54,815 nucleotides of DNA from a virus (IMGVR_UViG_3300021494_000060:1-54815); one strand, 5' to 3'. Positions 3,427 to 49,700 are shown, counted from the stretch's first letter. Numbers and translations: made by a program. Notes: generated by a model not told the origin, from the sequence alone.

Positions 3427-3477
3427 TAGGGGTTTCACCCCTAAAACCCCAGTTAGGGGTTTCATCCCTAAAACTCC
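3427..3477. repeat. Dispersed GGGG/CCCC hairpin element, two tandem units, at the convergence of the two arms
   Basis: TAGGGGTTTCACCCCTAAAACCCC followed by TAGGGGTTTCATCCCTAAAACTCC. Confidence 0.9.
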
Positions 3478-3503
3478 TATGCCGAAGAAGCCATGCAACA
3501 TCT

Positions 3504-3839
3504 TCACTCAATTTCAGTTAATATTGGCGCAGCAGGCGGTGTGAAGTCATAATTAACTATAACTTCGTTGCTGAAAGCGCTTTCAAGACCATCTGCGGTA
3601 TAGGCTGTAATACCGAAGATATTATCACCGTCTTTTACCCATATCCTGCCTGTCCATTCACGCAGTGCCGGATCTTCAAAGGTCTGGACAAGCTTGTGAT
3701 TGGCGTACAGTTTAAAACCGGCAATTTCAATATCTTCAGGATAAGTCCATGACGCCGTGATTATTTTGCCGTTGCCGGCAGATACCGCAACGGCGCAAGT
3801 AATAATAAAGAATACAATTAAACTAAAAAGTCTTTTCAT
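3504..3839 (-). CDS. Secreted fibronectin type III-like protein
   Basis: Signal peptide, ASW...GFKLY...FGITAY...GLESAFSNEV pattern. Confidence 0.65.
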   Translation of the reverse strand: MKRLFSLIVFFIITCAVAVSAGNGKIITASWTYPEDIEIAGFKLYANHKLVQTFEDPALREWTGRIWVKDGDNIFGITAYTADGLESAFSNEVIVNYDFTPPAAPILTEIE

Positions 3840-3852
3840 TTTTTCTCTCCTT

Positions 3853-4263
3853 TCACGGTGCTATGAGTATTTTTCTTTTTTTAGGTTCAGCAGCGTAATC
3901 TGCAAAATTCGCAACAACCTTATACCATAGTTTAGCCCGCCATTTCCACATACCATCCTGAAGACAAATATTGTAAAAGTTCTTGTCCGCTATGGCTTTA
4001 TATGAAAACGGCAGCAATTTTAACCTGATAAGCTGATAAAGAGCATCATGGACAAGCGAAGCCCTCATGCTTGATTTGGTATCTATAGTGGGGCCGCTTG
4101 CACCGTCCCAAGCGTAACCTTTTTTAATTATAATTCGTCCTCCTGTCAGTTCAATGAAAGGAGTTTTGCAAAAACAATCCTTAATCCCATATCGTCTTAA
4201 TTGAAACTCAAAGGTTTCCTCAAGTCTATACTTATAATATCGTTTACATTTTGAATATATCAC
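3853..4263 (-). CDS. DUF1353-like protein
   Basis: GYAWDGASGP...ASLVHDALYQ...AD motif. Confidence 0.7.
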   Translation of the reverse strand: MIYSKCKRYYKYRLEETFEFQLRRYGIKDCFCKTPFIELTGGRIIIKKGYAWDGASGPTIDTKSSMRASLVHDALYQLIRLKLLPFSYKAIADKNFYNICLQDGMWKWRAKLWYKVVANFADYAAEPKKRKILIAP

Positions 4264-4290
4264 TTTTTCACCTCCATAGGGGTTTCATCC

Positions 4291-5769
4291 CTAAAACCCC
4301 TTTTTTAAATTTATTTCCGCCAATGCAAGCTGACGTCCTATATACATGGCATGGTTTAAATCAGACACAGCCATATCTCTATAAATCTTATGCTGGATTG
4401 ATTCAGCCTTTCTGCCGCGATATTCATGTATTAAAAGACCGTCTTCAGTGCAGTGCCGTGCAATAATCTCATTCTTTTGCTTATCTACAGTAAAATTAAA
4501 GATCCCGTTAGGATCAGTTTTAATCGATGTTTTTCTATTCTTTACCAATAAAGCTGCTCTTGCAATGGTGCTTTCATCTAAGTCTATGCTTATGGAATTG
4601 CTTATAACGGTTATTGCTCCTGATTCCATACCTGTTTTATCTGCCACAAAATCCAGGATAGCCTTTAATCCGTAAAAGTTATATATCCAGGCATCGATAG
4701 CATTATGAGTACGGTAATTAGCAGTTAATGTCAATTTCTTTTCATAATATCGAAAAAAGAGAGACACTAAACATGGTGTGCTTTTCTCACCCCCCATATC
4801 ATTTCCGGTATCCCAAAGCGCTATAAAACATTTGCGGTCTTCGTTATCTTTTAGGAGTCTTTCAATAGCTGTTGTCAAACCATCTATGCCAAAATATGAC
4901 CTGACCCGATGCCCGTATGTATAAGAAACATCCGCAGGTTTTCCACCAGACAGGATATCTTTTTGATACAATTTTATTTTATCTTCGTTGAACCAGTATT
5001 TTAAAAGCCTTTGATCCGGATCTTTAACAGGTTGCTCTACTATGACTCTAACATTCTGTAATTCCTTCCGTCTGCCTTTTGCAAGACGCACGGTTCTGCC
5101 GAAGCGGTAAAGTATAAAAACCAGTTCTTCCCATGCTTGAACTACGTCTTTTTTTGTGATGGTAAAGGACGCTGGACTGCATGGTAAAGTGCTGATGCTG
5201 ACTTCAGGTAAAGGAACTTCTTTACGGCAGCTTAAAGAACGATTAATACTGGATACTCCTGAAAAATATTTCTTGGCAGTTTCAAGATTTTGATTGTCTG
5301 ATAATTCACCAAGATATGTAATTTCAGGTTTAGGTTTAAAATCTTCAGGCTTGACCAGCGAATCAAGTATACGAGTTCTGCCTATAATACGAACTGCCGG
5401 TATTGTTTGATTATTAAAATGATATGGCGAACTTTCCTTAACCTGTTCAACACCCTTGGTAAAAAAAGACACTAAATCCTCTAATGAACCGTAACGATTT
5501 CGCCCACAACAGACTAAATGAGTAATTTGCGGATTATAAAGCAGGTTTCTAATAAGATAAGGAAATCCATTGCCGCGCAGATTGCCAATAACAGCTATTT
5601 TAGAAAGATCAACACCAACTTCTGATAACCGCTTAACAACCCACTCTACACCTGACCAAAGAGTAACAACACCGATAAAACCTTCAGGATTTATTATTTT
5701 TAGTTTGTCTTTAAAATATAAAGGTTTAAATATGTACATGGTATGTTTCATAATTATATCCTGATTCAT
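4291..5769 (-). CDS. Thymidylate synthase-like protein with N-terminal MtrA-like and C-terminal DUF4346-like domains
   Basis: SYTYGHR, PCL catalytic Cys, R-T-H-N; N-terminal VTLWS...GNL...NPQI; C-terminal DPNG...HAMYIGRQL. Confidence 0.75.
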   Translation of the reverse strand: MNQDIIMKHTMYIFKPLYFKDKLKIINPEGFIGVVTLWSGVEWVVKRLSEVGVDLSKIAVIGNLRGNGFPYLIRNLLYNPQITHLVCCGRNRYGSLEDLVSFFTKGVEQVKESSPYHFNNQTIPAVRIIGRTRILDSLVKPEDFKPKPEITYLGELSDNQNLETAKKYFSGVSSINRSLSCRKEVPLPEVSISTLPCSPASFTITKKDVVQAWEELVFILYRFGRTVRLAKGRRKELQNVRVIVEQPVKDPDQRLLKYWFNEDKIKLYQKDILSGGKPADVSYTYGHRVRSYFGIDGLTTAIERLLKDNEDRKCFIALWDTGNDMGGEKSTPCLVSLFFRYYEKKLTLTANYRTHNAIDAWIYNFYGLKAILDFVADKTGMESGAITVISNSISIDLDESTIARAALLVKNRKTSIKTDPNGIFNFTVDKQKNEIIARHCTEDGLLIHEYRGRKAESIQHKIYRDMAVSDLNHAMYIGRQLALAEINLKKGF

Positions 5770-6502: not shown

Positions 6503-6525
6503 TTTTCTTATCCCCGCACTTCTTT

Positions 6526-7578
6526 CTATATTTTTTCGATCTCATTACCCCAACTTGCCCAATCTTTTCTTAAGTTTCGTGCAAAAAGCTCAATTTTACG
6601 TTGTTCTGGATACATGCTTTCTATAATATCGTAAATTTTCGATGGTTTTTTACTGTGTTTGTCTTTATCGGCGAAGAAAACGCTTTCAGGCAGATCCATT
6701 GTCATTGGAAGAAAACTCCCTTTAATTCCAATAAGAATAATTTCATGTTTACTACGGACATAAAACCCTGTGCCGATATAGGACTTTACCCATACCATTG
6801 ATGTTTTAAATTTAAACCCCCAAGCTTCTATTACGGAAATAGCCTCTTTAAGCATCGACGTTGTTGCCCATAGAAAAAGAACAGCATTGTCAAGTGTTAT
6901 TTCTTTTACCGGTAATGCTTGAATTTCTTCTATAGTCATTGTCGGATAATGATCATCTGCTACACCCCTCATTGAAGTGGAGTTTTGAGCATACTGCCAT
7001 GGTGGATCTGCCAACAAAACATTGTATTTGCCCTCTAATTTGCCAGCCGGTATTTTTTTTAATTCCTGTTTTCTTTCAACCCTTTTAATTTCCTTATAAA
7101 TTGCATTTATAGAGCTTTTACCAGTGTTTATCCGCTCTATCTGTTTTTTGTCTGCTTTTTTTACAATAACTTTCGCTTTTTGATAAGTAGTATGCCCGCC
7201 AAATCCCGCTTGCTTTGCTGCAATATCTCTTGTTTTGATATTTTTTAGATTCTTACATTTTCGTTTTTTTAACATATCTTCAACAGCTTTTCCAATAGCA
7301 ACTCTTTCTTCAATATTAAACTGTTTCCGAACTTCATTTTCTGCCAATTCGCCTTCCAAAAGGCTGCTAACATCAACAATTCTTCCCTCAATGCTTTCAT
7401 AACCAAGCAGCTTGCAAGCCTCCATTCTCCGCTGTCCAAAAACCAGTACATTGTTTTGGTCAATTCCTATAGGCTGAAGCAAGCCTTGTTTCTTAATACT
7501 ATCGGCAAGTTTTTGCAAATCTCCCATATCCTTGCGATATCTCGTGCCAATCTTTATATCTTTAATTTTTATTTGCAT
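6526..7578 (-). CDS. ParB-like domain fused to MT-A70 family N6-adenine methyltransferase
   Basis: LADSIKKQGLLQPI...G.RR (ParB/Srx); ADPPW, LFLWAT, HSKKP, IELFAR, WGNE (MT-A70). RBS GGAG before ATG 7578. Confidence 0.9.
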   Translation of the reverse strand: MQIKIKDIKIGTRYRKDMGDLQKLADSIKKQGLLQPIGIDQNNVLVFGQRRMEACKLLGYESIEGRIVDVSSLLEGELAENEVRKQFNIEERVAIGKAVEDMLKKRKCKNLKNIKTRDIAAKQAGFGGHTTYQKAKVIVKKADKKQIERINTGKSSINAIYKEIKRVERKQELKKIPAGKLEGKYNVLLADPPWQYAQNSTSMRGVADDHYPTMTIEEIQALPVKEITLDNAVLFLWATTSMLKEAISVIEAWGFKFKTSMVWVKSYIGTGFYVRSKHEIILIGIKGSFLPMTMDLPESVFFADKDKHSKKPSKIYDIIESMYPEQRKIELFARNLRKDWASWGNEIEKI

Positions 7579-7697
7579 GTTATTTTTTTCTCCATAGGGA
7601 TACCACACTATAACCACCTTATAGCCAATATTAGAGACTTTTTTGATTTAGATATGCTAACCCCTATATATTTAAATTTTAGCGCCTAAAATTAACG

Positions 7698-7865: not shown

Positions 7866-7869
7866 GTTT

Positions 7870-8860: not shown

Positions 8861-8863
8861 TTT

Positions 8864-9064
8864 TTACTTCTCCTCTCTTTGTTTGGGGGGTGGAACTTCT
8901 ACAAGAAAATCCAAATCTGCTGCATATTTATCCTGTAATTTTATAGGGGCGTTGCCCATAGGGGTTTCACCCCTAAAACCCCTATAACCCCGTAATTTTA
9001 ATAATATTGCCAATTCAATTATCAAGTTTGCTATTACCAGAACCAATATTATGATCTCAATCAT
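8864..9064 (-). CDS. Small membrane protein carrying an in-frame hairpin-repeat insertion
   Basis: Hydrophobic N-terminus; RGYRGFRGETPMGNAP is encoded by the repeat at 8941-8992. Confidence 0.55.
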   Translation of the reverse strand: MIEIIILVLVIANLIIELAILLKLRGYRGFRGETPMGNAPIKLQDKYAADLDFLVEVPPPKQREEK

Positions 9065-9086
9065 TTTTTATATCCTTAATTTTGTT

Positions 9087-9437: not shown

Positions 9438-9456
9438 TTTCCCCTCCTTTTTCTAC

Positions 9457-14948: not shown

Positions 14949-15043
14949 ATAGGGGTTATAGGGGTGAAACCCCTATGAGATTATAGGGGAAGCGCCCCTA
15001 ACTGGGGTTTTAGGGATGAAACCCCTACTGTTCTTGCCCCCTA
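14949..15043. repeat. Cluster of three or more dispersed hairpin elements
   Basis: GGGGTTATAGGGGTGAAACCCCTA; TAGGGGAAGCGCCCCTA; GGGGTTTTAGGGATGAAACCCCTA. Confidence 0.85.
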
Positions 15044-15949
15044 TTCTATATAAATCCCAAACATATTCTGAGATTCTGACATATTATGAGATTCTGAAAA
15101 TCTATTTATAAATTTCCCCATAATCCGCACAGCCTTTTCCACTTTTTTATATTTTCTATAATCCATTTTCCGCAAATAATTCAACCCTGCTTCTGTTACG
15201 TTTCCAGTCCCTTCATATATGCAGTTTTCGATAATTCTTACTTTTTCCTGCGGCGTAGCAACATCCCAGATTGCAGCAGTATTTTCTATTTCATCAGCAG
15301 AATAGAAAACAATAAACACAGGAGAATTGAAATCATTGAAATTTTCAGAACCGGCAATTTTTTTCAGATAAGCATAAGCGGTTTTAATTTCAGCTTTTGC
15401 TTTCAATTCTTCTGCTAAAATATCCTGTATATCTTTTAACCTCTCTTCTTTCAATATATCTTTCAAATGCTTGTTATGATATATAATCCTGATATTTAAT
15501 ATACCATCAACCTGTTTTTGCCTGATATAATCATCAATTTTTCTTTCTACCATTTTCAGTAACTGTGATTTCCTGATCTGCCTTGCGTTTCTGACCTTAC
15601 TGCGCAGAATAATAATATCATCAACCCGCATATAGGCAATTTTATTAGTTCTTCTATTAATCCTTTCATTACTTCTGCCATTTTTATTCTCTCTATTAAT
15701 TATTTTTAAATTATTTCTTAAAACCTGTTTTTTTCTCTTGACATTTTCCCCATTAATGGTTATGCAATAGGGCGAGGTATTAAAGCACACTTGAATGATG
15801 GCTGCCTCAACCCGTTTCTTAATGGGTGCGCAAAAGGCACAAGCCCATGACAAACAGCCGCAAGACCGTGTAAAATGGCTGTTTTCGGAAAAATATAACA
15901 GCGATATTTCTCCATTGCAGTTTGTCTGATATTGACTCTGAATAATCAC
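15041..15949 (-). CDS. Putative replication initiator
   Basis: N-terminal CGCLSWACAFC Zn motif like that of Rep-type initiators; basic; next to a helicase gene and a long inverted repeat. Confidence 0.45.
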   Translation of the reverse strand: MIIQSQYQTNCNGEISLLYFSENSHFTRSCGCLSWACAFCAPIKKRVEAAIIQVCFNTSPYCITINGENVKRKKQVLRNNLKIINRENKNGRSNERINRRTNKIAYMRVDDIIILRSKVRNARQIRKSQLLKMVERKIDDYIRQKQVDGILNIRIIYHNKHLKDILKEERLKDIQDILAEELKAKAEIKTAYAYLKKIAGSENFNDFNSPVFIVFYSADEIENTAAIWDVATPQEKVRIIENCIYEGTGNVTEAGLNYLRKMDYRKYKKVEKAVRIMGKFINRFSESHNMSESQNMFGIYIE

Positions 15950-15999: not shown

Positions 16000-16171
16000 A
16001 TTATGTAAACGTAAAAAATCGCATTTTTTCAGACTATATCTGGGAAAACTCGTACTTGAGATGGGTCAATAAGTCTTATATATAAGATATATATAGCGTT
16101 ATTGACCCATTTTAAAATCGAGTTTTTCAATACAGTGCTGGGCGTAGGCCGGTTTTTAACGTTTACATAAT
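16000..16171. repeat. About 170-bp imperfect inverted repeat, candidate origin
   Basis: Arms ATTATGTAAACG / CGTTTACATAAT, AAAACTCG / CGAGTTTT and ATGGGTCAATAA / TTATTGACCCAT around an AT-alternating centre. Confidence 0.8.
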
Positions 16172-16222
16172 AGGGGCGCTGCCCCTATAACCCCATAGGG
16201 GTTTCACCCCTAAAACCCCCTA
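16171..16222. repeat. Dispersed hairpin element, two units
   Basis: TAGGGGCGCTGCCCCTATAACCCC and TAGGGGTTTCACCCCTAAAACCCC. Confidence 0.9.
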
Positions 16223-17644: not shown

Positions 17645-17709
17645 AATTCTAATCCTTTGTTTAATGTTTAAGAATATTTAATTAAGATATTAAGATATTC
17701 AGTTATTTT

Positions 17710-18579
17710 TTACATACCTCCTTTCTTGTCTGTATAAGAGCGTAGCGCCCCTATGGGGGGGGTTATAGGGGGGGGATACCCCCCTATTTTTAATCCCGCC
17801 GCTATCTTTTCCAAATTTAACACACCGCTTCTTTTCCCTTCACTATCGCCAGTATATTTTACACTCCATGATTCGCCCATGTCCACTGCTTTTTTAGGAG
17901 TTTCAAAATATACCATAGGTGGATATACAACTTTTCCTCCTTTTCTGCGCGTAACCACCCTTCCTACCAGATCAAAGAAGCCGAACATAGCTTCAGGAAA
18001 CTCCCGTCCTTTTAATGACGGTGCATAATCCTTCATTTTATCCCATGACGGATTCTGTGCCTCCAAACAGGTTACAATTATATCCTTTCCGTTATTAGCG
18101 GCCAATCTCATAAAGCACTGTGAAATCCGGTTCATATTGCCGGAAATCCCTCCATATCCCTCCTGGCTCAGTTTTGTTTTAGATATTAACGGCTTATATC
18201 CCTTTTCCTTATCGCTAAGACTATCAAACCGTTCTGTCGTCAGTTCCAGGCTCAGATTAATATTCATCAGATGAGTATATCCATCACAGACAACAGTTTT
18301 ATATCTCTTAAAATTATCTGCATCACTGCAAAATTTTATTAAATCCTCAAAATCCTGATACTCCATGTAATCTATATCAAGATCTTTTCGTTTTGCGGCC
18401 TTAATGGATATCCCGATATTACGAGGCTCTGTTGCTATCCAGAATATCGGACAGGCGGCAGTTTGTATTATAGTGGTAGTTTTTCCTACTTCTGTAGCGC
18501 CATAGATCATTATAAAACTGCCGGACTGGTCATTATCCTTTTTCGCTATTAATTCCGTTAAATTTTTTATTCTTGCCAT
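17710..18579 (-). CDS. AAA_24 / Sak4-like ATPase (recombination)
   Basis: IYGATEVGKTT Walker A, TVVCDGYT Walker B, FDLVGR. Confidence 0.8.
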   Translation of the reverse strand: MARIKNLTELIAKKDNDQSGSFIMIYGATEVGKTTTIIQTAACPIFWIATEPRNIGISIKAAKRKDLDIDYMEYQDFEDLIKFCSDADNFKRYKTVVCDGYTHLMNINLSLELTTERFDSLSDKEKGYKPLISKTKLSQEGYGGISGNMNRISQCFMRLAANNGKDIIVTCLEAQNPSWDKMKDYAPSLKGREFPEAMFGFFDLVGRVVTRRKGGKVVYPPMVYFETPKKAVDMGESWSVKYTGDSEGKRSGVLNLEKIAAGLKIGGYPPPITPPIGALRSYTDKKGGM

Positions 18580-22453: not shown

Positions 22454-22521
22454 GAATATTAACGAATATTAAAGAATAATGAAGAATATTAACGAATATT
22501 AACGAATAATAGCGAATAATA
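22454..22521. repeat. Seven degenerate 10-bp tandem repeats (GAATATTAAC) upstream of terS
   Basis: GAATATTAAC GAATATTAAA GAATAATGAA GAATATTAAC GAATATTAAC GAATAATAGC GAATAATA. Confidence 0.85.
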
Positions 22522-26520: not shown

Positions 26521-26622
26521 ATAGGGTGTAAACACCCTATAACCCAATAGGGGCGCTGCCCCTATAACCCCAATACTGGTGGAAAGGCCAGGCAATAGGG
26601 GGTAGTCCCCCTAAAACCCCCA
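26521..26622. repeat. Dispersed hairpin element, three units between portal and scaffold
   Basis: TAGGGTGTAAACACCCTATAACCC; TAGGGGCGCTGCCCCTATAACCCC; TAGGGGGTAGTCCCCCTAAAACCCC. Confidence 0.9.
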
Positions 26623-28760: not shown

Positions 28761-28790
28761 TATAATAGGGGCAATACCGCCCCTATTATA
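28761..28790 (+). terminator. Hairpin after the capsid gene, related to the dispersed element
   Basis: TATAATAGGGGC-AATACC-GCCCCTATTATA 12-bp stem. Confidence 0.55.
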
Positions 28791-38407: not shown

Positions 38408-38409
38408 CT

Positions 38410-39795: not shown

Positions 39796-42700
39796 TAAAA
39801 ATGCCTGACGAAAAATCAGACTGGATAAAACTTGGTGATCTTGCGCAGAGAAAACAACCTGGAACATTACCGGAAGCTGTTCATAATGATAGGACGGACT
39901 GGGTAAAAGGCACTAAACCTGTAGATTTTATTCCAGAAACTGAAAAGCCTGATGCCTCATGGAATATTGCCAGAGGCTTAAAGTCGGGATTACTGACTAC
40001 AGCCGCAACATTGCCTGCGTTACAATCAATGGCTTTCCAGGCAGGAGGCTTGAAAACAGCAGCGGAAGAATCGGCAAAAACCGCTCAGATCTTTTCAAAA
40101 GAAGCAGAAAAATATCAGCCTGACACTTCGTTTAAAGAGCTGGCAAAAGACCCGTCATGGCATGGATTGCTTGATTATGGTTTATATACTCTTGGTTCTT
40201 TGTTGCCAAGCGCGATGTTTGGTTTGGGAGGCGGCGCAATAGGTGAAAAAGCTGCAACAAAATTAATCTCACGGAAAACTCTTGAAAATCTTGCAAAAAA
40301 GAATCTCGCTAAAGGGTTAACAAAAGAAGCTGCTGTAGAAGCCGCTGTTAATACAATTGCAAAAAGAGGCGCAGCGGCTGGTATTATCGGCTCAACAGCC
40401 GCTTTTGAAGGAACGGGGATGTATCTTACCGATTATGAAAAACATGGTAGAGATGCCCGTGTCCTTCCACATGTACTTGGCGGGTTAGCTGCTGGTGCAG
40501 TAGAACTTGGTCTTGGCGGAGTAGAATTAGGTCTTGTAAAAAAAATGTTTGGCAGAACTGCTGCTAAAGTAGCTGCTAAAAATCCTGAAATCGGTAAAAG
40601 TCTTTTGCACAAAGCAGCAGGAATAGTAAAAGAATCGGCAGGTGAAGCAGCAGAAGAATTAACTCAGGAAGAAATTGCAATCCTGAATGAAATGTATGTT
40701 GCCAAGCCTGGTGAAAAAACAGTAACACCGTTATCAAAAGAAGGTTTATGGAGAGCAGCAGAAGCAAGTGCAGCAGGTTTTATAGGAGGTGTGCCGTTAA
40801 GTACGCTAAGTGCGGCAATGCCAACAAAAGAACAGGAAACTGAACAAGAAACTGATAATCTTATTAACAGGCAGCGTGCAGAAGATGATTTAAGAACGAA
40901 AATAACAAAGAGTGCAGTTGATGAATATGTTAATGAAGCCAGCGCAGGTGTTAAGTTCCGTCCTGCTCCAAGACCTTCCACAGCAGAAGAAGCTGCAAGA
41001 GTTTTTGAAAGAGAACTTCCGCCCGATGTACGCAGTGCAAGAGAAGCCGCAGAGACTTTTATAAAGGAAGGAACAACAATTGAAAGAGCGGCTAAAGAAC
41101 GGCAGCGTATAATTGATAAAACATATCTGCCTGCTGAAGAAGAAGCTGACAGAAGAAAACTTGCTGAAGAACAAAGACGTAAGGCTATTAAAGAACGTGA
41201 AGGAGGAATTTATGAAGTACCGGAAAAAGGGTTTGAATTTCCAGTCATTGAAGAAGAAAAAAAAGAAGAGCCTGAAACAGTCAAAAACGAAATAGCAGGT
41301 ATTGAAAAACAGATCAAGGAAAGAACAGAACGGCTTGCGGCTGAAACTAAAGGACGAAAAAGATCAGAATTGGCAAGAGAATTGTCGGTTCTGCATAAAA
41401 ACCTTGCAGATAAAATGGCTTCGTTAGCAGAAATCAAAAGAGGTAGTAGAGAAGCTCCTGAAAAAGGAGTAAAGTTTGCATCTTCTTTTAAAGAAATCGA
41501 GATACCTCCTGAACTTCCTGATCTTGAAGGCACAAACAAGCAGAAAAATTGGGCTTATGATATTCGTTCTGAATATGTTACAAGAATGAACGAATTAACC
41601 GGCAGAATGATGAAAACCTTTCTGGGAAGAACAGTAGGGGTTTCACCCCTAAAACCCCAGTTTAATTATGATAGATTCAAGCAGATTGCAGAAGAAAAAG
41701 CTAAAAATACTGATGCGTCATGGTGGATAGATAATCGGAATAAACTCAAAATAAAAGACTTGATAAAAGAAGCCAGAACACCTTCAAGAATATCTGATAA
41801 ACTTCAAAAAGCCAAAGAAGATATTGAATTCGCAGAAATTACAGAAGGAAGCCCGAAACAGATTAAATGGGCGGGAAAAATACGGTCGGATGCCATAGGT
41901 AATATATTAGGTACTTCAAAAGAAAAAACAGAAGAAGAAGCAGACGCGTTAGATATTGAAAATTTTGAATATGACAGTTTCATTGAATTTCTAAAAACAA
42001 AAGTATTTAATAATACTTCTGCAAAATGGTGGATAGACAACAGAAGCAGCCTTAACATATATGATTTGTTAGACAATATGGAGGATGAGTATAATAAATG
42101 GGTTGATGAAACTAAAACCAAAACTAAGACTGAAGAAAAACCTAAAGTTGAACCAGAGCCTAAAATTAAAACTGAACCAGAACCAGAACCTGAACCTGAA
42201 ATTGAAGATAGCACTGTCAGTGTTGAAATGTCTGCAAAAGAAGCAGAAACATTGACATTAAAAGAACAGAAAAAATATCTGCTTGCCGAAATTGAAAAAG
42301 CTAAAGAACAGGCATCAGATGAAAAGCCTGAGCCAATTCCTTTAAAGCTCCAAAAGGCTATAAAGAAATCAGGCCGAACAGATAAAAAAAACACTGCTAT
42401 AGATGCTATAGATAAGATATATGAAAGGAACAAGGCCAGATTTGGAACAATAACAATAGAAGTTCCGGGCGATGGTGATTTTACCATTATAAACACAAAA
42501 CAGTCGTTAGATGAATTTAAGAAAAAAGCAAAAAAATTTCCGGAAACAGAAGAAATGCCGGAAACTCTCGTTAAAGAGCTTCCAAAATTAAAACCTTCAG
42601 AAAAAAGAGTCTCCGGTGAAGGTATAAGTTATTACAATCCTTTCAGAGTAAGAAAAAGAACATTAAAGGCTTTACCTGTAGATACACAAAAGAATAAATG

Positions 42701-43352
42701 GGATAAAAAGAACAGGCTTTATTATTCAAGCGGACTTATTATTAAGCTTGACAAAGCGCCTAACGTAAAAATTTCTGATAAAGAATCTGTAATTCCAGTA
42801 GAAAATCTTGAAGAAAATGCACCAGATCCGGCAAGCATTAAAGGTGAGGCATCAATACAGCTTGAAATACCTGTTGCAGATGTTGTTTCTGCTGATGAAA
42901 AGACACATATTTATATATCGGCAGAATATGCTGATATAATGTTGACTCGTTATCCAGATGCAAAGATATTTATAGGAGATATAAATGAGCCTGTTGTATT
43001 TAAAGTAGATGATAAATTTGCAGGCGCTATAATGCCTATGGCAATTTATAGCCAGCCTGTTCTTGATGAATTGCTGGAAGGATACGAAAGATTAAAAAAA
43101 TCTGAAGCTGTTCCAAAAGAAAGAAAAGAATCTAAAAAAGAATCTAAAAAAGAATCTGAAAAATCTGCCGTTCCTGAAGTCAAGCCCAATATTGATATCC
43201 ACAGCCTGCCAATCGAAGATATAACAGTCAATCTTGAAGCAATAAGGGAAAAAACAGGAGAAAAAATAATAATCAAAGATACGGCTGCAAATGCTTTTAA
43301 AGATATTGAAGATCGTATTGAAAAATACTTACAAGTACTGGAGTGTTTATAA
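39792..43352 (+). CDS. Large polyvalent / ejection protein, 1186 aa
   Basis: G/A-rich N-terminal region (EAAEELTQE), two EG..KQ..WA..IR...WWIDNR domains, PE repeats. Confidence 0.75.
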   Translation: MIKMPDEKSDWIKLGDLAQRKQPGTLPEAVHNDRTDWVKGTKPVDFIPETEKPDASWNIARGLKSGLLTTAATLPALQSMAFQAGGLKTAAEESAKTAQIFSKEAEKYQPDTSFKELAKDPSWHGLLDYGLYTLGSLLPSAMFGLGGGAIGEKAATKLISRKTLENLAKKNLAKGLTKEAAVEAAVNTIAKRGAAAGIIGSTAAFEGTGMYLTDYEKHGRDARVLPHVLGGLAAGAVELGLGGVELGLVKKMFGRTAAKVAAKNPEIGKSLLHKAAGIVKESAGEAAEELTQEEIAILNEMYVAKPGEKTVTPLSKEGLWRAAEASAAGFIGGVPLSTLSAAMPTKEQETEQETDNLINRQRAEDDLRTKITKSAVDEYVNEASAGVKFRPAPRPSTAEEAARVFERELPPDVRSAREAAETFIKEGTTIERAAKERQRIIDKTYLPAEEEADRRKLAEEQRRKAIKEREGGIYEVPEKGFEFPVIEEEKKEEPETVKNEIAGIEKQIKERTERLAAETKGRKRSELARELSVLHKNLADKMASLAEIKRGSREAPEKGVKFASSFKEIEIPPELPDLEGTNKQKNWAYDIRSEYVTRMNELTGRMMKTFLGRTVGVSPLKPQFNYDRFKQIAEEKAKNTDASWWIDNRNKLKIKDLIKEARTPSRISDKLQKAKEDIEFAEITEGSPKQIKWAGKIRSDAIGNILGTSKEKTEEEADALDIENFEYDSFIEFLKTKVFNNTSAKWWIDNRSSLNIYDLLDNMEDEYNKWVDETKTKTKTEEKPKVEPEPKIKTEPEPEPEPEIEDSTVSVEMSAKEAETLTLKEQKKYLLAEIEKAKEQASDEKPEPIPLKLQKAIKKSGRTDKKNTAIDAIDKIYERNKARFGTITIEVPGDGDFTIINTKQSLDEFKKKAKKFPETEEMPETLVKELPKLKPSEKRVSGEGISYYNPFRVRKRTLKALPVDTQKNKWDKKNRLYYSSGLIIKLDKAPNVKISDKESVIPVENLEENAPDPASIKGEASIQLEIPVADVVSADEKTHIYISAEYADIMLTRYPDAKIFIGDINEPVVFKVDDKFAGAIMPMAIYSQPVLDELLEGYERLKKSEAVPKERKESKKESKKESEKSAVPEVKPNIDIHSLPIEDITVNLEAIREKTGEKIIIKDTAANAFKDIEDRIEKYLQVLECL
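41627..41662. repeat. Dispersed hairpin element in frame inside a CDS
   Basis: 35/36 identical to the reverse complement of 15000-15035; encodes RTVGVSPLKPQ. Confidence 0.9.
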
Positions 43353-43412
43353 TAGGGGGTAAACCATAGGGGTTTCACCCCTATAACCCCAACAACCCCC
43401 TATAACCCCCGA
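43352..43412. repeat. Dispersed hairpin element cluster
   Basis: TAGGGGTTTCACCCCTATAACCCC plus partial units. Confidence 0.85.
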
Positions 43413-43772: not shown

Positions 43773-43775
43773 AAA

Positions 43776-44138: not shown

Positions 44139-44574
44139 AAAAAGATGGACAGCGTATGATTCGTTACAAACGTATCTAACGACTGAATTAAACAGTTTGG
44201 CTAATAACGGTCTTGTTCTTGGTTCAGCCATTGATTTTACGGCATCCGGTACAGACCGGAAGTTATATATAGACATAGAATTATACTTGGCCTCGATAGA
44301 TTTATCGTCGCAAGATAATCCGGCTGCATATATTTGGCTACTTCGCAGAACAGATGGCACTAATTTCGAGGATGGCGGTGCGTCTATTACACCGGCACGA
44401 ATGCCTGATGATATTATTCCATTGCGGGAAGCTAATGCTGCACAGAGAGTATCTGGTAAAGTTATAACAGTGCCTGATCAAGGTAAAATATTAATAAAGA
44501 ACGAATCCGGTGTTACATGGGCGTCAAGCGGCAATACATTGAAATATAACATCTATTCAATACAGGATGCTTAA
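44128..44574 (+). CDS. Putative virion structural protein
   Basis: LNSLANN...DGTNFEDG...SGNTLKY beta protein. Confidence 0.6.
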   Translation: MATEKRWTAYDSLQTYLTTELNSLANNGLVLGSAIDFTASGTDRKLYIDIELYLASIDLSSQDNPAAYIWLLRRTDGTNFEDGGASITPARMPDDIIPLREANAAQRVSGKVITVPDQGKILIKNESGVTWASSGNTLKYNIYSIQDA

Positions 44575-46511
44575 TGTTCCGATATTGTAGATTACAAAAT
44601 CCAACCAAAAAGCCTCCTTATGGAAGCATAATTGACACACGGCATCCATTAGCGCAAGGGTTAATAGGCTGCTGGGCATTCAATGAACACGGCGGAAACA
44701 TGGCTTTTGACTGCGCCGGCCAGAATCATTTCACGCTGTATAATACAGACTGGAATGTTGACGGCGTATTGTTTAATTCGGCGTCTGACTATGGCAGGAA
44801 AACCAATCCTGCCAATATAGGCGGGTTTCCTAATGGGTTTAGTATAACAGTTATATTAACGCCTGCGGCATTGGATACACGCTGTAGTTTTGTCCAGCAT
44901 TATGACACAACGGATAACCAGCGGGCTTTCTTCGTAGAATATGATTTTGAAGATAATAGAATCCGTGTGTTTTTATCAGGGGATGGTGTTAATTATTATG
45001 TTTCACAGCATGAAAACCCTTTAGAAGTCAATAAAGAAACTATTTTTACTGTTACATGGACGCCTGGTAATTTTCCAATTCTTTATGCTGATGGTATCTT
45101 AAAAAATACGTTACATACAGACGGAACGCCAACATCCACCATATTTGATTCTACAGCTCCGTTAGATATAGGCAGGAGTACGTATAGTACAAGCAGAGCT
45201 TTTCCTGGCACAATCCATCTTGTTTTAATACATGATTTAACATTGCCGGAGATATTAACCAGAAGCCTGCATAACTATAAATATTCTTTATTTGAAGACC
45301 CTTTTATATCTTATTTTTGCGATTTTGGTGCTGCTGCTCCAAGCAATATTATTAAAGTTTTAAATGATACGTCCAGCAGTTCTGATGTTGTCAAGCATGT
45401 ACTTGATATAGCAAAAATTCTTAGCGATACATCAGGCAGTTCAGATGCAGTAAATCATGCGCTTAATATAATAAATATATTGAGCGATACGGCTGATAGT
45501 TCTGATGCTGTAAGTCATGTTCTTGATATAACAGGGGTTCTTAATGATTCGGCCGCCGGTTCAGATGTTGTCAATCATGTTCTTGATATAATAAAAGTCT
45601 TTTCCGATTCAACCGGAAGTACAGAAACCTTTAACCATGTTCTTGATATTGTTAAGATTCTTAATAACACTGCTGACAGTTCTGATGCTGTTAATCATGT
45701 ACTTGGAATAATAAGAACCTTTCTTGATACCACTGATAGTTCCGATACTGTCAACCATGCTCTTGGCCTGATAAAAATATTTATTGATACCGCTGACAGT
45801 TCTGATACGCTCAATCATGTTCTTGATATAATAAAAGCTTTCAGCGATGCTGCTATCAGTTCTGACACTTTCAATCACGTTTTTGATATTGTTAAGATTC
45901 TTGATGAAACTGCCGCTGGTTCTGATACTGTCAACCATGTTCTCGGGATAGTTAAAACAATTGTTGATACCGCTGATAGTTCCGATGTTGTTAATCATGT
46001 TCTCGGGCTAATAAAAGTCTTTTCCGGTTCAGCCGGCAGTTCCGATACCATCAATCATGTTATTGATATTATCAGAGTTTTAAATAACACTGCTATCAGT
46101 TCCGGTACTGTCAACCATGTTCTTGATATAATAAAAATTCTCAATGATGCTGCTGCTGGTTCTGACACTCTCAATCACGTGCTTGGCATTGTCAGGGTTC
46201 TTAATAATTCAGCCGCTGGTTCAGACGCTGTCAATCATGTTCTCGGGCTAACAAGAACCATTATCAACTCTGCTGTCAGTTCTGATACTGAAAATCATGT
46301 TATTTCAATAACAGGTGATATTCTAACTGCATTGGCTGAAATTAAATCAGTGGTTGATGCTAATAATGTTCTTTTAACAGAACTCTGGAGATTACAGGGG
46401 CTTGATATATCCAACCCAATGACGGTTACTCCGACTTCAAGAACAGTTGGCAGTATATCACAGACAATATCTGGGGATGGTAAAACTATCACTACTGTAA
46501 CAAGAAACTAA
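44574..46511 (+). CDS. LamG/concanavalin-like domain fibre protein with 16 x 20-aa repeats
   Basis: HPLAQGLIGCW.FNE.GG, LYADG, PLDIGR (LamG-like); 60-bp periodic repeat at 45348-46307. Confidence 0.8.
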   Translation: MFRYCRLQNPTKKPPYGSIIDTRHPLAQGLIGCWAFNEHGGNMAFDCAGQNHFTLYNTDWNVDGVLFNSASDYGRKTNPANIGGFPNGFSITVILTPAALDTRCSFVQHYDTTDNQRAFFVEYDFEDNRIRVFLSGDGVNYYVSQHENPLEVNKETIFTVTWTPGNFPILYADGILKNTLHTDGTPTSTIFDSTAPLDIGRSTYSTSRAFPGTIHLVLIHDLTLPEILTRSLHNYKYSLFEDPFISYFCDFGAAAPSNIIKVLNDTSSSSDVVKHVLDIAKILSDTSGSSDAVNHALNIINILSDTADSSDAVSHVLDITGVLNDSAAGSDVVNHVLDIIKVFSDSTGSTETFNHVLDIVKILNNTADSSDAVNHVLGIIRTFLDTTDSSDTVNHALGLIKIFIDTADSSDTLNHVLDIIKAFSDAAISSDTFNHVFDIVKILDETAAGSDTVNHVLGIVKTIVDTADSSDVVNHVLGLIKVFSGSAGSSDTINHVIDIIRVLNNTAISSGTVNHVLDIIKILNDAAAGSDTLNHVLGIVRVLNNSAAGSDAVNHVLGLTRTIINSAVSSDTENHVISITGDILTALAEIKSVVDANNVLLTELWRLQGLDISNPMTVTPTSRTVGSISQTISGDGKTITTVTRN

Positions 46512-46554
46512 AATGTCTTTATTGCCAACAAGAAACTAAAATGTCTTTATTGCC
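46499..46554. repeat. Exact 28-bp tandem duplication across a stop/start junction
   Basis: AACAAGAAACTAAAATGTCTTTATTGCC twice. Confidence 0.9.
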
Positions 46555-46741
46555 GGTTGCGATAGCAACTGATGGATTAATAAAAGGTTCATTAACTCTT
46601 GGAATTGCTGTAAGAGGATTATTAAGATTCCAGGAAATACCCACGCCTGATATTCTTGGGCATCTCAGTATTGTTGATATAGATGATGAAGATTTACTTG
46701 ATGTTATTTTAATAGCTGTTTGTTACAAACTCCTTGAATAA
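46541..46741 (+). CDS. Small hypothetical protein
   Basis: AIATDG...DDEDLL pattern. Confidence 0.55.
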   Translation: MSLLPVAIATDGLIKGSLTLGIAVRGLLRFQEIPTPDILGHLSIVDIDDEDLLDVILIAVCYKLLE

Positions 46742-46757
46742 ATAAGGAAACATTTCT

Positions 46758-49700
46758 ATGGCTTCTCTCGCAAAATGTTTAGATCTTGCTAAGATAAAAA
46801 CTCCCGAATCAAAATTAATCAAAGCCAAAGCAAAATCTTTGATGTCTGAAGGCTATACTGAAAAAGAAGCTAACGAAAAGGTTATTAAAGATACCATTGA
46901 AGATTTAAACAGGGAATGGCAGGATATTGTTAATCAGGTAGAAAAAATAACAGGCAAGAAGTTTAAAACAAAAGAGGTTATAGGGGCTTACCCCTATAAA
47001 GGAGAAAAATATGCTGCCGATCATGTTAGAGAACAAAAACGGGAAAAAGCAAAGGTTGAACCTCCTGAGAAACGCATTGGAGAAAAAGAATCCAAAACTG
47101 TTCCAACAGTTAAAGAAAAATTTGCAACTGAAGAAATTCCTGAACGAAAGAGAGAACCAGTTGATGTCAGTGTTCAGGAAAGAAGAAGAAAAACTCCTGT
47201 CAAACCTGTCAAAAAAGCCGATAAGCAATCCGCTCCGGTGGGAACAAAAGTACCGAGCGGAACTGCTGAGAATATGGGAGTTGACCCTGCAAACGTTTCT
47301 GGAGTTCTAAAAAGAGACCATGTCATAGCTCATGGAGACCTTGAAAGAAAAAGATCATGGCTTGGAGTTGCTGAAGATAATCTTGCTGCGATTGAAACTG
47401 CAAAGAAAATAATAAGTGAAAACAGACCTGCAACATTAAAAGAACAGTCGATTCTTGCAAAATACGTTGGCTGGGGAGCTTCAGAACTTGCAAACAATAT
47501 GTTCCCTGGTGTCTCATTTCGTGGCAAGCTATCTCCCCAATGGGCAGAACAAAAATGGAAGCCTCTTGTTGAACAACTGCAAAATATCCTGACTCCTGAA
47601 GAAATAATACAGGCTGCAAGAAGTACACAGTATGCTCACTATACAAGCGAACAGGTCATTCGTTCAATTTATAATGTTCTTGAAAAGTTTGGTGTAAAAC
47701 ATGCTAAATTTCTTGAACCAGGCATGGGTATTGGTAATTTTATAGGATTAATGCCTGCTTCTTTCAGAAAACGAAGTTCATTTACGGGCATTGAGAGAGA
47801 TTCTGTAACAGCTGATATTGCGAACCTTTTATATCCTAACCAGAACATTTTAAAGTCTGATTTTATCAAACAGGCACTTCCGAAAGATTTTTTTGATATT
47901 GCAATTGGAAATCCTCCTTTTTCTCAAACAAAAATTCTTGAAGACCCTGAATATAAAAAATACCGTTTATCTACACATAATTATTTTTTTGCAAAGGCTC
48001 TTGACCGTGTCAGACCAGGCGGTCTGCTTGTTTTTGTTACAAGCCGTTATACAATGGATTCAAAAAATGAAGCGGGCAGAAAATATATATCCGAACGGGC
48101 AAACCTGATAGGCGCAATCAGGCTTCCACAAACGGCTTTTAAAAAAAATGCCGGCACTGAAGTTGTTACAGATATTCTTTTTCTGCAAAGAAAGGATGAA
48201 GATATCCCAGCAGGTCAAGCATGGGCAAACATTAAAGAAGTAAAAGTTGATAAAGACCTTGCATATAATAGAATTAACACAGCAGAAATTAATGAATATT
48301 ATATCAAGCATCCTGAGATGGTTCTTGGCAGGCATTCATGCCGCGGCGGCATACACGCAAAAGACGGCTACACTGTAGAACAAGGCACTGAAAGTATAGA
48401 TAAGTTATTTGAAAGAGCAGTAAAAAAATTACCTGAAAACATTTATAAACCGCAAATTGCAAAAAACAAGAAAAAAACGGAAGTAACCGAAATTCTTGAA
48501 AGAGATTTTAACCCGAAAATTACACACGAGGGGGGAATATATCTTTCAGAAAAAAACCAGTTAATGATTACGGAAAAAGGTATTGGAAAACCGATAACCG
48601 GATTATCCGCAAAAAACACCGAGTTTCTCAAAGATTATATTCTGTTAAGAGATGCCCTGAAATTATCACATAAAGCACAGTTGGAAAATAAAGACTGGGA
48701 AAAAGCTTTAGAAGATTTAAATAAACAGTATGATTCATTTGTTAAAAAACATGGCAGAATTAAAAGTTATAAATTATTTACAAGGAAACAAAAACAACCG
48801 GACGGAACAGTAAGAAAATTTACCGAAAAACGGTATAAAAATTTATCGTTATTAAAAAAAGATGTTGAATATACAAGAATACTGACTCTTGAAAAAGAAA
48901 CAGTTGATGGCGAACTGATAAAATCAGAAGTTCTGACACGCAGAACAGTCAATAAACCTGTAACGCCCGAAATAAAAACAGTAGCAGATGCACTTGCTGT
49001 TTCTTTAAGCCAGACAGGAAAACTTGATATAGAACATATTGCTGATCTTGTAAAAGAAAAAGACACAGCTAAAATAATAAAAGATTTAGGAGATTTGATC
49101 TATAAAGTTCCGGGAACTAATAACTATATTCTTGCAGATGAATATCTGTCTGGTAATGTCGTAAGAAAATTAAACGAAGCCATAGAAGCTGCCAGGATAG
49201 ATTCTGAATTTAACAGGAATGTAAAAGCTTTGCAAAAAGTACAGCCTAAACCGTTAGCGCCGAAAGATATTACAGTTACATTAGGCGCAACATGGATTCC
49301 GCTTAAATATTACAACCAGTTTGCAGCAGAAGTTATTGAACTGCCCGGAGTTAAGATATCGTACCGGACAGCAAATAATTCATGGGGAATTGATGGTGAT
49401 TTTACTGCACAAAGTTTAAGAGGAAGACCTGGTTATACATGGAGCACGGAAGATCGTGGAGCAAATGAAATCCTTGATGCTGTTCTTAATAATAAAACTA
49501 TAAAGGTGAAAGGTAAAGACCCTGAAACAAATGCAGTCTTTGTTGATAAAGGAGCTACTGCCGCTGCTCTTGATAAGGCAAGGGAGATGAAAACGCGGTT
49601 CAGAACATGGATATGGGAAGATTCTGACAGGGCAAAAAATTTATTGGATATCTATAATACCAAGATCAATGTTTTAAAAGGCAGGGAGTTTGACGGTTCG

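Follow-up and report, generated by a model that had tools for sequence, protein, structure and literature searches.

The window analysed here is the whole of a 54,815-nucleotide virus record (IMGVR_UViG_3300021494_000060), the source being a hydrothermal-vent phage. Its opening 766 nt recur at its end with 98.2% identity, and the unique genome is therefore ~54,049 bp in size and circular or circularly permuted. Dispersed through it is a hairpin repeat with the consensus TAGGGG-loop-CCCCTA(A/T)AACCCC, comprising a stem of 7 bp (TAGGGG and a covarying seventh pair) and a 3-nt loop, with the 3′ arm followed by TA(A/T)AA and a second C-run which copies that arm. With one mismatch allowed per arm, 18 hairpin cores are present at the eleven loci named in a preliminary description of this sequence, against a mean of 0.39 and a maximum of 2 in 100 second-order Markov simulations. 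Exact TAGGGG-N3-12-CCCCTA palindromes number 13, every one at these loci, while none occurs in 100 dinucleotide shuffles. The tail CCCCTA[AT]AACCC is found ten times on the forward and twice on the reverse strand (simulated mean: 0.01), and the GGGTG/CACCC and GGGGG/CCCCC stem variants described earlier are both found in the window.

Two tandem units with a 27-nt period, the second slightly decayed, are located at 3427..3477 (+), between the convergent genes 3229-3420(+) and 3504-3839(-) and 6 nt past a TAG stop. A single unit with a T mismatch in its 3′ arm (4277..4300, +) contains the CTA (4291-4293) that forms the TAG stop of a ThyA-like gene (4291-5769, -), and lies immediately upstream of the RBS and GTG start of gene 3853-4263(-). 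Two cores and an extra TATAACCCC 9-mer at 8941..8992 (+) make up 19 in-frame codons of a small membrane-protein ORF (8864-9064, -), translated as RGYRGFRGETPMGNAP. The cluster at 14949..15043 (-), composed of three cores and a half unit in reverse orientation, is located between a helicase start and the stop of gene 15041-15949(-), for which it provides the TAG; a 42-nt block within it (14994-15035) is nested within another hairpin. The intergenic locus 16171..16222 (+) harbors two units, of the CGCTG/TATAA and TTTCA/TAAAA variants, and a unit with G8/C6 stems plus a partial unit (17741..17796, -) is read in frame as IGGYPPPITPPIGA, the C-terminal part of a Sak4-like gene (17710-18579, -).

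Three further units (GGGTG/CACCC, GGGGC/GCCCC and GGGGG/CCCCC with a CCCCC tail) at 26521..26622 (+) begin right after the portal stop and precede the scaffold gene at 26637. A perfect 30-nt palindrome on the TAGGGG...CCCCTA core, lacking the C-run tail and without strand (28761..28790), begins right after the major-capsid stop codon. The gene 39792-43352, encoding a 1186-aa protein, contains one unit with its flanks, translated in frame as TVGVSPLKPQ (41627..41662, +). Right after its stop begins a nested structure (43352..43412, +), in which an outer ATAGGGGG...CCCCCTAT pair encloses a second hairpin and is followed by a run of CCCC(C)TATAA-type 9-10-mers; it precedes gene 43425. The final locus, a symmetric unit with a CTTA loop and without strand (46973..47000), is read in frame as VIGAYPYK near the N-terminus of a giant DarB-like methylase/helicase gene, and is also carried by a 96% identical relative (P0004). 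The four peptides listed in the preliminary description thus occur in real frames, and 4/11 loci lie within genes and are translated. Six of the eleven touch a stop codon or lie at most 6 nt from one, and two genes, 4291-5769(-) and 15041-15949(-), have their TAG stop inside a unit. The stop-codon proximity of these six loci could also reflect selection for function. Units had also been reported before the RBSs of genes at 4263, 26637, 43425 and 47011, but no gene starts at the last of these positions; the start of the giant gene lies at 46758 and its homologues share the N-terminal sequence, and the RBS-like AAGGAG is therefore internal and out of frame.

When 153 copies of the unit are compared, the seventh pair is Watson-Crick in 145, with four pair types represented, while a fifth C in the tail accompanies 18 of 28 five-G stems and 3 of 125 others. 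The covarying seventh pair, together with a tail that tracks stem length, suggests that the hairpin is under selection. Six tested stretches folded as single-stranded DNA gave z-scores of -2.55 to -4.99. An Rfam search of the window returned no matches at E<=1, and that of related loci only sub-threshold chance matches, such as Clostridiales-2 (Bitscore: 26.4; threshold: 58.6). Of the 153 copies, 58 have C before TAGGGG, 53 have T, 33 have A and 9 have G, and in the window the base at this position is A in 15/18 and G in 1/18; a shared motif or fixed target motif before the units was sought in the flanks of the eleven loci and none was found.

The strict 24-25-mer is present in nine copies in the window, with three variants represented by 4, 2 and 2 letter-identical copies. 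Furthermore, the copy at 41627 shares 35/36 positions with the reverse complement of 15000-15035, confirming the earlier report of a near-identical intergenic copy on the other strand 26 kb away, and the copied 36-mer includes 8 and 4 nt of flanks. The identical copies of three variants and the 35/36 match point to recent spread within the genome. Empty sites, which the preliminary description had proposed to look for, were found as presence/absence differences among relatives 92-98% identical to the phage. The 57-nt block 8935-8991, flanked in the window by a perfect 9-bp direct repeat (GTAATTTTA), is skipped in contigs of 4/4 sequencing runs, the run evidence being drawn throughout from contigs, several of which are marked 'between: not known'. 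In five of five related small membrane proteins, taken from separate sources, precisely the 19 residues encoded by the element are missing. A related metagenome contig (L068) and two runs lack the 42-nt block 14994-15035, 99 nt are replaced by 52 at 16171..16222 in three runs, and a variant joint, 4275->4313, is found in two. A 97% identical relative (P0001) has two tandem 27-nt units at the 41627 site, compared to one in the window, while at 2680-2689 units are present in relatives and absent from the window. The junctions are heterogeneous (9-bp repeat, 5-8-bp imperfect repeat and 8-nt replacement), with a 9-bp target duplication at one of the three resolved. Contig L068 contains decayed stems and 4 substitutions in ~48 nt of units, compared to 96.5-98.4% identity in the flanking DNA, suggesting that the units change faster than their flanks in this contig. 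Copies are being gained, lost and tandemly duplicated between near-identical phage genomes, and these presence/absence and copy-number differences bear out the earlier view of the repeat as REP-like, recently active and tolerated in frame.

A 24-mer pattern with 19 fixed bases matches at least 123 loci in bacterial and archaeal genomes, against ~2 expected, and 32 viral loci, while the reversed pattern gave no match in all 19 genomes checked. The hairpin family spans bacteria, archaea and viruses, and its occurrence in all three speaks against the phage-specific signal previously envisaged. Among the repeat-rich genomes, the Clostridia MAG G010 harbors 57 hairpin copies, G002 22, G012 10 and G004 8; hairpin density in the phage is ~8x that of the richest bacterial genome examined. 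In bacteria, the hairpin is found in orphan REP/MITE-like repeats, which in G010 take the form of a ~175-nt repeat with 16-17-nt terminal inverted repeats, and in Treponema the genes carA, carB and purF carry in-frame copies in stretches that separate Pfam domains. The 145 ORFs adjacent to the hairpin at 55 loci are ordinary housekeeping genes, with a single IS110-type transposase among them, and at three giant-virus MAG loci the TAG of the hairpin is the stop of a conserved gene. Orientations relative to the flanking genes are mixed (-- 17, ++ 11, +- 11, -+ 7), and units occur in both orientations relative to transcription in phage and bacteria alike. The lack of an orientation rule points to a DNA-level rather than an RNA-level element, and the presence of both orientations argues against the single-strand origin, priming site or strand-specific RNA signal that had been put forward.

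In the Thermoplasmatota, the hairpin abuts a ~730-nt IS200-type element with an antisense tnpA, encoding a Y1 (HUH) transposase, as its only gene. It lies at the element boundary at two loci (L194 and L196), where tnpA matches PF01797 (e-values: 3e-14 and 2e-12), and is followed by identical downstream sequence in 10/10 Thermoplasmatota loci seen; in genome G008, each of the seven copies either adjoins an element copy or is found where a contig ends. Two units of the window, at 43367 and 14952(-), match the hairpin of this element letter for letter, and the preceding A is shared. Searches of the window for the other-end motifs of the archaeal element and for the bacterial composite modules found neither; the phage carries the bare hairpin module only. 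A Y1 gene was found near the hairpin at 0/~110 bacterial loci, and PF01797 had no match in G010, with its 57 copies, or in G012, these being MAGs which may be incomplete. Genome G002 contains 23 PF01797 matches, and those inspected are not flanked by the hairpin.

Copying by a Rep protein of the phage itself, as had been proposed, is not supported by the domain content of the window, in which no Y1/HUH domain was found at E<=10 and no GIY-YIG domain (PF01541) at E<=0.01. The 302-aa protein encoded at 15041-15949 has no match in Pfam, PHROGs or Atlas, and its structure model is unusable. The phage encodes a Sak4-like annealing protein, an ERCC4-type nuclease and a helicase adjoining the densest clusters. 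In G002, G004, G010 and G012, PF01541 exceeds the family cut-off only in frames of 618-661 aa, which from their size we take to be UvrC, with an additional sub-cut-off match in a 281-aa frame of G002. A role for the units at the replication origin is likewise unsupported: the likely origin or control region coincides with the GC-skew minimum, in the divergent gap spanning 22.07-22.54 kb, and contains its own 10-nt iterons and no hairpin unit.

We suggest that the repeats represent a very small, non-autonomous REP/MITE-like mobile DNA hairpin rather than a signal made by or for the phage, a reading to which we give about an even chance. New copies would arise while the phage DNA is single-stranded during replication. 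They may be produced by a host-encoded enzyme acting in trans, with a Y1/HUH transposase as a first guess held at clearly less than even confidence, or by hairpin-driven template switching and short-homology annealing, perhaps aided by the Sak4-type protein and nucleases of the phage. Local slippage would afterwards generate the 27-nt and 9-nt tandems, and copies would survive only where harmless, either directly at stop codons or inside tolerant linkers without disturbing the frame, the latter being possible because block lengths of 27, 42 and 57 nt are all divisible by three. Transposition of the IS200/IS605 type makes no target direct repeat, and the perfect 9-bp repeat at 8935-8991 therefore counts against movement of this kind. 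As the link to Y1 transposases and the 9-bp duplication are at odds, no enzyme is assigned.

The repeats could alternatively have spread with no dedicated enzyme, through replication errors and the relaxed recombination of the phage (fork stalling, template switching, 5-9-nt single-strand annealing and slippage). Consistent with this are the microhomology at the heterogeneous junctions (9 bp; 5-8 bp imperfect; 8-nt replacement), the 36-mer that moved with 8 and 4 nt of flanks (35/36 identical), the tandem 27-nt and 9-10-nt arrays, the Sak4-like protein, ERCC4-type nuclease and helicase beside the densest clusters, and the absence of a transposase from the phage in domain searches. It does not, however, explain the recurrence of the same 24-mer with a covarying tail across phyla and domains, or the hairpin as a Y1 transposon end in archaea. 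Furthermore, the perfect 9-bp target duplication resembles a staggered cut more than chance microhomology, and we regard such a spread as unlikely.

Bacterial REPs act as gene-end structures which tune transcripts and expression, and the phage hairpins may similarly be working punctuation, that is, mRNA or DNA structures kept by selection at gene ends for transcript stability, termination or pausing, or expression ratios. The location of six loci at or within 6 nt of stops, including those of the portal, major-capsid and 1186-aa genes, the two genes that end on the TAG of a unit, the strength of the hairpins and the conserved genes ended by the hairpin TAG at the three giant-virus MAG loci are consistent with this. 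Units in both orientations relative to transcription, four loci within genes, presence/absence between near-identical genomes, the decayed stems in L068 and the lack of an Rfam match nevertheless make it quite unlikely. Moreover, no U-tract was found on the transcribed strand after the units, with flagged units in 1-20 kb on the non-transcribed strand, and terminator-like sites are not enriched in the window (18 versus 13.6 +/- 3.8 expected).

A further, rather improbable, proposal is that the 24-nt 'hairpin plus copied C-run' represents a class of ultra-small mobile DNA not described before, found across domains and served by dedicated machinery. This machinery would generate ~9-bp target duplications and recognise three parts, the G-arm, the C-arm and the tail C-run, which could form an alternative hairpin or an intramolecular triplex 'paperclip'. 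The module would be capable of invading the genomes of bacteria, archaea, phages and giant viruses, including in-frame positions within essential genes, with IS200-type elements and bacterial composite repeats being mere vehicles that picked it up.

Protein binding or cutting sites, for a phage factor (the ParB-methylase fusion encoded at 6526-7617 or the 302-aa protein) or a host Ssn-type single-strand nuclease, appear very unlikely. The inverted and direct CCCCTA half-sites are arranged like iterons, the largest cluster abuts the 302-aa gene, and Ssn nucleases with hairpin repeats are a widespread pairing according to the accessible part of PMC11893778. However, the window contains no GIY-YIG gene and the four repeat-rich genomes G002, G004, G010 and G012 no small one above the cut-off, the motif is unlike the Ssn consensus ATTCCC-N8-GGGAAT, and the 145 neighbouring ORFs (55 loci) are ordinary housekeeping genes. 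The occurrence of the element in hundreds of unrelated genomes also argues against a phage-specific factor, and searches with the 302-aa protein gave no lead. Recombination cassettes like the PeSLs reported from T4-type phages in the portions available of PMC2839356 and PMC4122927, in which short homologies shuffle gene modules, are most improbable, as the location of units at gene boundaries and a joint (16196->19586) that starts exactly at a unit in two runs without the recombination module (zero depth at 17343-18009) stand against just 25 letters on the shorter side of that joint, which is flagged unreliable, the lack of any promoter part found with the hairpin (66 promoter-like sites versus 68 expected, in a scan which does not cover the promoter type of the host), and in-frame copies and a distribution beyond phages that such cassettes leave unexplained.

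The accessible part of PMC3733652 describes REPs with RAYT (Y1) transposases as REPtrons, and neither its text nor its four supplement files, as far as available, contain the present hairpin family. The phage repeats share with REPs the form of short, dispersed, imperfect palindromes, occurring singly, in tandem or in clusters, for the most part near the ends of genes and occasionally within them; both resemble IS200/IS605 end hairpins and are presumed to move in trans as single-stranded DNA. They differ in lacking a GTAG tag (G precedes TAG in 9/153 copies), in that no flanking RAYT gene was found, in a tail C-run that covaries with the stem, in their high density in a phage genome, and in a hairpin sequence common to phyla and domains, where REP families are usually lineage-specific. 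The subterminal hairpins of IS200/IS605 elements and of their miniature derivatives (PATEs) are comparable in that an identical hairpin ends the ~730-nt Thermoplasmatota Y1 element. The phage units are, however, single hairpins without the other element end, one insertion has a 9-bp target duplication, and no conserved target tetranucleotide or pentanucleotide was seen at the phage units.

Like the PeSLs, the units are repeated stem-loops at phage gene boundaries tied to indels and replacements between close relatives, but PeSLs, in the available portions of PMC2839356 and PMC4122927, are promoter-plus-terminator composites of one phage group and not in-frame elements common with cellular genomes. 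The NTS/dRS3/SRM repeats of the Ssn system, as outlined in the accessible part of PMC11893778, are likewise widespread hairpins with non-palindromic flanks which act as single-stranded DNA, but differ in sequence, and searches of the phage and of four repeat-rich genomes gave no small GIY-YIG gene above the cut-off. RPEs, in the available part of PMC3733652, are 100-150 bp in size, confined to one lineage (Rickettsia) and CGTC-tagged, whereas the phage unit is 24-27 nt, lacks a CGTC tag and is found across domains. Both are selfish palindromes carried in frame in genes and tolerated in loops or linkers, the present examples being four genes of the phage and carA, carB and purF of Treponema. 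MITEs such as Correia are also non-autonomous and intergenic, with inverted-repeat ends and possible target duplication, but the only inverted repeats of the phage unit are the hairpin arms, and a duplication is present at one of three resolved junctions. To our knowledge, the unit is far below the size of any described MITE, and we know of no parent IS with ends matching it.

The usual view of REP-type repeats is that they belong to bacterial chromosomes and are specific to a lineage. The hairpin described here departs from this picture in that one sequence appears across phyla, archaea and viruses, reaches its peak density in a phage, is caught being gained and lost in natural vent populations and is read in frame within genuine proteins, including ones that cells require (carA, carB and purF). 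The covariation of stem and tail C-run represents a concrete, testable structural clue which current REP models do not explain. A genome of 54 kb, the co-occurrence of empty and filled alleles within the same samples and the candidate archaeal Y1 transposase make the phage a compact natural system for the movement of mini-elements, and open questions on the transfer of such elements between hosts by phages and on the tolerance of proteins to palindrome-encoded peptides.

Exact TAGGGG-N3-12-CCCCTA palindromes occur 13 times in the window, while none was found in 100 shuffles. With one mismatch per arm, 18 cores were obtained (simulated mean: 0.39), none of them outside the 11 loci at which the preliminary description had reported the hairpin unit TAGGGG-loop-CCCCTA(A/T)AACCCC, and the element is thereby confirmed. 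The tail TA(A/T)AACCC is present on 12 cores, and a strict 24-25-nt pattern retrieves nine copies, comprising three variants with two to four letter-identical copies each. The reported near-identity of the copy at 41627 to the opposite strand at 15000-15035 likewise stands (35/36 letters in common, flanks included). Six stretches folded as single-stranded DNA yielded z-scores of -2.55 to -4.99, and the TTTCA/TAAAA variant has an alternative 7-bp hairpin (GGGGTTT/AAACCCC) of a predicted stability equal to or greater than that of the palindrome.

Structural counts were made on 153 non-redundant copies. In 145 of these, the outermost two loop letters make up a Watson-Crick pair, with four pair types represented, while the next inner pair is Watson-Crick in only 6/153, and the unit therefore consists of a 7-bp stem and a 3-nt loop. 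Furthermore, a fifth C in the tail C-run accompanies 18 of the 28 copies with a five-G stem, as opposed to 3 of the 125 others (Fisher p ~1e-13), a three-way covariation which, to our knowledge, is predicted by no current REP model. As a DNA element, the unit has been under structural selection, and the covarying Watson-Crick pair makes a hairpin a more probable fold than a G-quadruplex or i-motif.

Seven of the 11 loci are intergenic. Three directly follow the stop codons of the genes for the portal, the major head protein and a 1186-aa protein, one starts 6 nt past a stop codon, and at two the unit supplies the TAG stop of a minus-strand gene. The ThyA-like gene at 4291-5769 (minus strand), whose 492-aa product is an unusual fusion of a thymidylate-synthase-like part with a C-terminal PterinBD-DUF4346 region, takes its last codons and stop from a hairpin unit. 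The four loci previously proposed to be translated are indeed in frame within real genes, namely those for a small membrane protein (conserved at 47 aa, 66 aa in the window), the C-terminus of the Sak4-like protein, the 1186-aa protein and a giant protein. The latter starts at 46758, as confirmed by homologues, and not at 47011, where a gene start had been placed. Both orientations relative to transcription are found.

The preliminary description had proposed a search for empty sites in orthologues, and such sites exist. The 19 residues encoded by a 57-nt block at 8941 are exactly missing from all five related small proteins (JGI, ENA, NCBI and Logan assemblies), the same 57 nt are skipped by the contigs of 4/4 sequencing runs, and a perfect 9-bp direct repeat borders the block on both sides in the window. 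A 42-nt block at 14994-15035, which comprises one unit and its flanks nested within another hairpin and has an imperfect 5-8-nt repeat at its borders, is missing from a JGI contig (identity to the window: 96.5-98.4%) and from the contigs of two runs. A 97% identical protein (P0001) harbors two tandem 9-residue (27-nt) units versus one in the window. At 2680-2689, eight letters of the window stand in place of units found in relatives; in run X5, the joints 2680->16182 and 16202->2689, for which a 13.5-kb deletion was considered, are read instead as such a unit. The units of the JGI contig differ from those of the window at four of ~48 positions, including stem-breaking differences, which exceeds the divergence of the flanks. 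The run evidence consists of contigs, with several joints marked 'between: not known'; the findings from the proteins and the JGI contig do not depend on it. The hairpin has multiplied within the phage lineage, in which units are now being gained, lost and tandemly duplicated, and the surviving copies lie at stop codons or in frame. Just after the helicase stop (13033/13034), the window has a half unit only (ATAGGGGCTTA, minus strand), and both relatives have 29 additional nt that make up another, GC-rich hairpin (2412-2440 in JGI contig L068; 1669-1697 in L069).

The gene-end positions fit a role of the units as punctuation or terminators. This is nevertheless improbable, as their orientation is mixed, U-tracts are missing, copies occur in frame inside genes, and presence and absence differ between near-identical genomes.

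The window spans an entire virus record, that of a tailed phage, and the genome is estimated to be complete (CheckV completeness: 100%). Nucleotides 1-766 and 54050-54815 form an inexact repeat (98.2% identity), indicating a circular or circularly permuted genome of ~54,049 unique bases, and the inexactness indicates assembly from two strain variants. IMG/VR labels the record as linear. As the ends repeat each other, the giant DarB-like methylase/helicase gene that spans them encodes ~3281 aa, the same length as a 96% identical relative (P0004). Terminase, P22-like portal, scaffold, major head protein and tail genes are present, along with those for an M15 peptidase endolysin, a helicase, a Sak4-like annealing protein, an ERCC4-type nuclease and a ParB-methylase fusion; genes are on the minus strand at 3.5-22.1 kb and on the plus strand elsewhere. 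A periodic 60-nt repeat (~13.5 copies at 45346-46174; alternatively 120, 180 or 240 nt) is located within the gene at 44574-46511, which probably encodes a repetitive fibre or tape-measure-like protein. The 302-aa protein encoded at 15041-15949 has no Pfam or PHROG match (Atlas top score: 0.78; AlphaFold mean pLDDT: 36.8).

Parts of the window are present in 21 public runs from 19 studies, all derived from hydrothermal-vent, marine-sediment or marine metagenomes except X11, which bears a coded organism name. No close relatives were found in IMG/VR by the helicase or 1186-aa protein. With DNA or the 1186-aa protein as query, the phage collection yielded none either, and only P22-like portals of ~33% identity were matched there. 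An IS605-type element at 11316-12556 (minus strand) contains tnpB only, with OrfB_IS605, Cas12f-like TNB and HTH domains. It is missing from both related JGI contigs, and 1241-1245 nt are skipped in the contigs of 4/4 runs, which shows it to be a recent insertion. As a source of the hairpin it was rejected, its ends being unrelated to the unit and its insertion separate. Searched for a clue to the host, the TnpB protein matches most closely, at 41-61% identity, proteins mostly of methanogens, and the M15 peptidase endolysin tentatively suggests a bacterial host.

A shuffling role, with the units serving as PeSL-like cassettes, is hinted at by one weak joint in runs X4 and X5, which departs from the genome precisely at the 16196 unit and rejoins it at 19586, 16 other letters intervening, its shorter side comprising only 25 letters. 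No promoter part was found with the unit, however, and we regard this role as very improbable. Depth is zero over 17343-18009 in the same two runs, and there are faint indications that the recombination module (ERCC4 nuclease and Sak4-like protein) may have been replaced in these populations. In the gap separating the divergent gene blocks, 6.5 copies of the 10-nt unit GAATATTAAC (alternatively ~2 copies of a 30-nt unit) are found at 22454-22518, at the cumulative GC-skew minimum, and this is probably an origin or control region with iterons. The origin-like role and copying by a phage Rep that had been envisaged for the hairpin find no support, since the genome encodes no Rep and the likely control region (22.07-22.54 kb) has its own iterons and no hairpin unit.

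Nor is the element specific to the phage. The pattern TAGGGG-N5-CCCCTAWAACCCC (19 fixed bases) occurs at no fewer than 123 cellular genome loci versus ~2 expected in 596 Gb, while the reversed-pattern control gave no match in 19/19 genomes checked, and the exact 24-mer was found at 14 loci in bacterial genomes of several phyla. Carriers among the matches listed include Fibrobacter, Treponema and other spirochaetes, many Clostridia, Enterococcus, Prevotella, Chloroflexota, Thermoplasmatota, and nano- and micrarchaeal MAGs, with cultured isolates among them, although the bacterial genomes examined are mostly MAGs. Up to 57 copies were counted in a Clostridia MAG (G010), with 22 in a spirochaete (G002) and then 10 and 8; strict copies are denser in the phage (0.167 per kb) than in G010 (0.020 per kb). 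A further 32 loci are located on IMG/VR contigs, including giant-virus MAGs, and some of these contigs contain tandem CCCCTATA(A/G) arrays. On three giant-virus MAG contigs (L435, L440 and L449) the hairpin TAG serves as stop codon for a conserved gene whose product ends in ...GMYM. Giant viruses have hairpins at transcript ends, of which this arrangement may be reminiscent.

In the Thermoplasmatota (loci L194 and L196; MAGs G006 and G008), the hairpin is located at the very end of an IS200-type element of ~730 nt, whose sole gene, on the opposite strand, encodes an IS200-type Y1 transposase (PF01797; E-values: 3e-14 and 2e-12). The element is multi-copy in G008, where contigs are broken at most copies and 7/7 hairpins adjoin an element copy or a contig end. 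Sequence downstream of the hairpin is shared by 10/10 of the Thermoplasmatota loci seen; upstream, a conserved TGAAA precedes it, beyond which the flanks vary among copies. The opposite end of the element bears a different long hairpin, CTGCGGGTC...GACCGCGCAG, within a covarying outer stem. The TTTCA/TATAA units of the window are letter-identical to the Thermoplasmatota hairpin, and 15 of 18 phage units share its preceding A.

In spirochaetes and Fibrobacter, the hairpin is a module of an orphan composite repeat of ~130 nt, while in G010 it lies within a ~175-nt repeat with inverted ends of 16-17 nt, around which nested short repeats and other hairpin modules occur in varying combinations (L210-L229). 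E. coli BIMEs are likewise mosaics of short repeat modules, which the G010 repeats would appear to resemble. No family is enriched near the hairpin among 145 ORFs at 55 loci, these being ordinary metabolic and housekeeping genes, and bacterial copies follow no orientation rule relative to adjacent genes. In Treponema and related spirochaetes (L364, L366, L315, L340 and L369; G015-G019), some composite copies are in frame in carA, carB, purF, where they lie between Pfam domains in Treponema, and other long ORFs, encoding the recurring peptides PRG(S/A)APKTP or, in the other orientation, GVLGAEPL. The Treponema carA inter-domain linker is hypervariable in nine orthologues and yielded no clean empty site. 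An in-house Y1 profile matched two of the at least 123 loci listed, 80 of which have long flanks; both are archaeal, and no Y1 gene was found near the bacterial copies listed. PF01797 has no match in the repeat-rich genomes G010 and G012. In four repeat-rich genomes, all GIY-YIG matches that pass the family cut-off are in frames of 618-661 aa, which from their size we take to be UvrC; a 281-aa frame of G002 gave one match below the cut-off. The phage genome encodes no Y1 or GIY-YIG domain and contains none of the archaeal or bacterial extra modules. A role as target of an Ssn-type nuclease is very improbable, as the motif differs from the repeats in the available text of PMC11893778 and no small GIY-YIG gene passing the cut-off was found in the phage or the four repeat-rich genomes.

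We suggest that the hairpin is non-autonomous and may be copied when the phage DNA is in single-stranded form. The archaeal element links it to Y1/HUH transposases, paralleling the link between REPs and RAYTs described in the available text of PMC3733652. The three resolved junctions are mutually different; one fits a staggered cut, and the others fit microhomology-driven template switching or annealing. IS200/IS605 transposition leaves no perfect 9-bp duplication, and the presence of one at the cleanest insertion argues against the Y1 route. Our confidence is split into rough thirds between a Y1/HUH enzyme acting in trans, a different enzyme that makes staggered cuts, and recombination without an enzyme.

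In kind, the unit resembles REPs, IS200/IS605 end hairpins, RPEs and MITEs. For the window and related loci alike, Rfam returned nothing above threshold, motif strings in the full-text literature matched only unrelated primers and human sequences, and the family is missing from the available text and four supplement files of the REP survey PMC3733652; no prior record of it was found in these sources. Its new features are its cross-domain reach, its covarying tail and the density at which it has colonised a phage, where it is currently active and some copies are in frame within genes.
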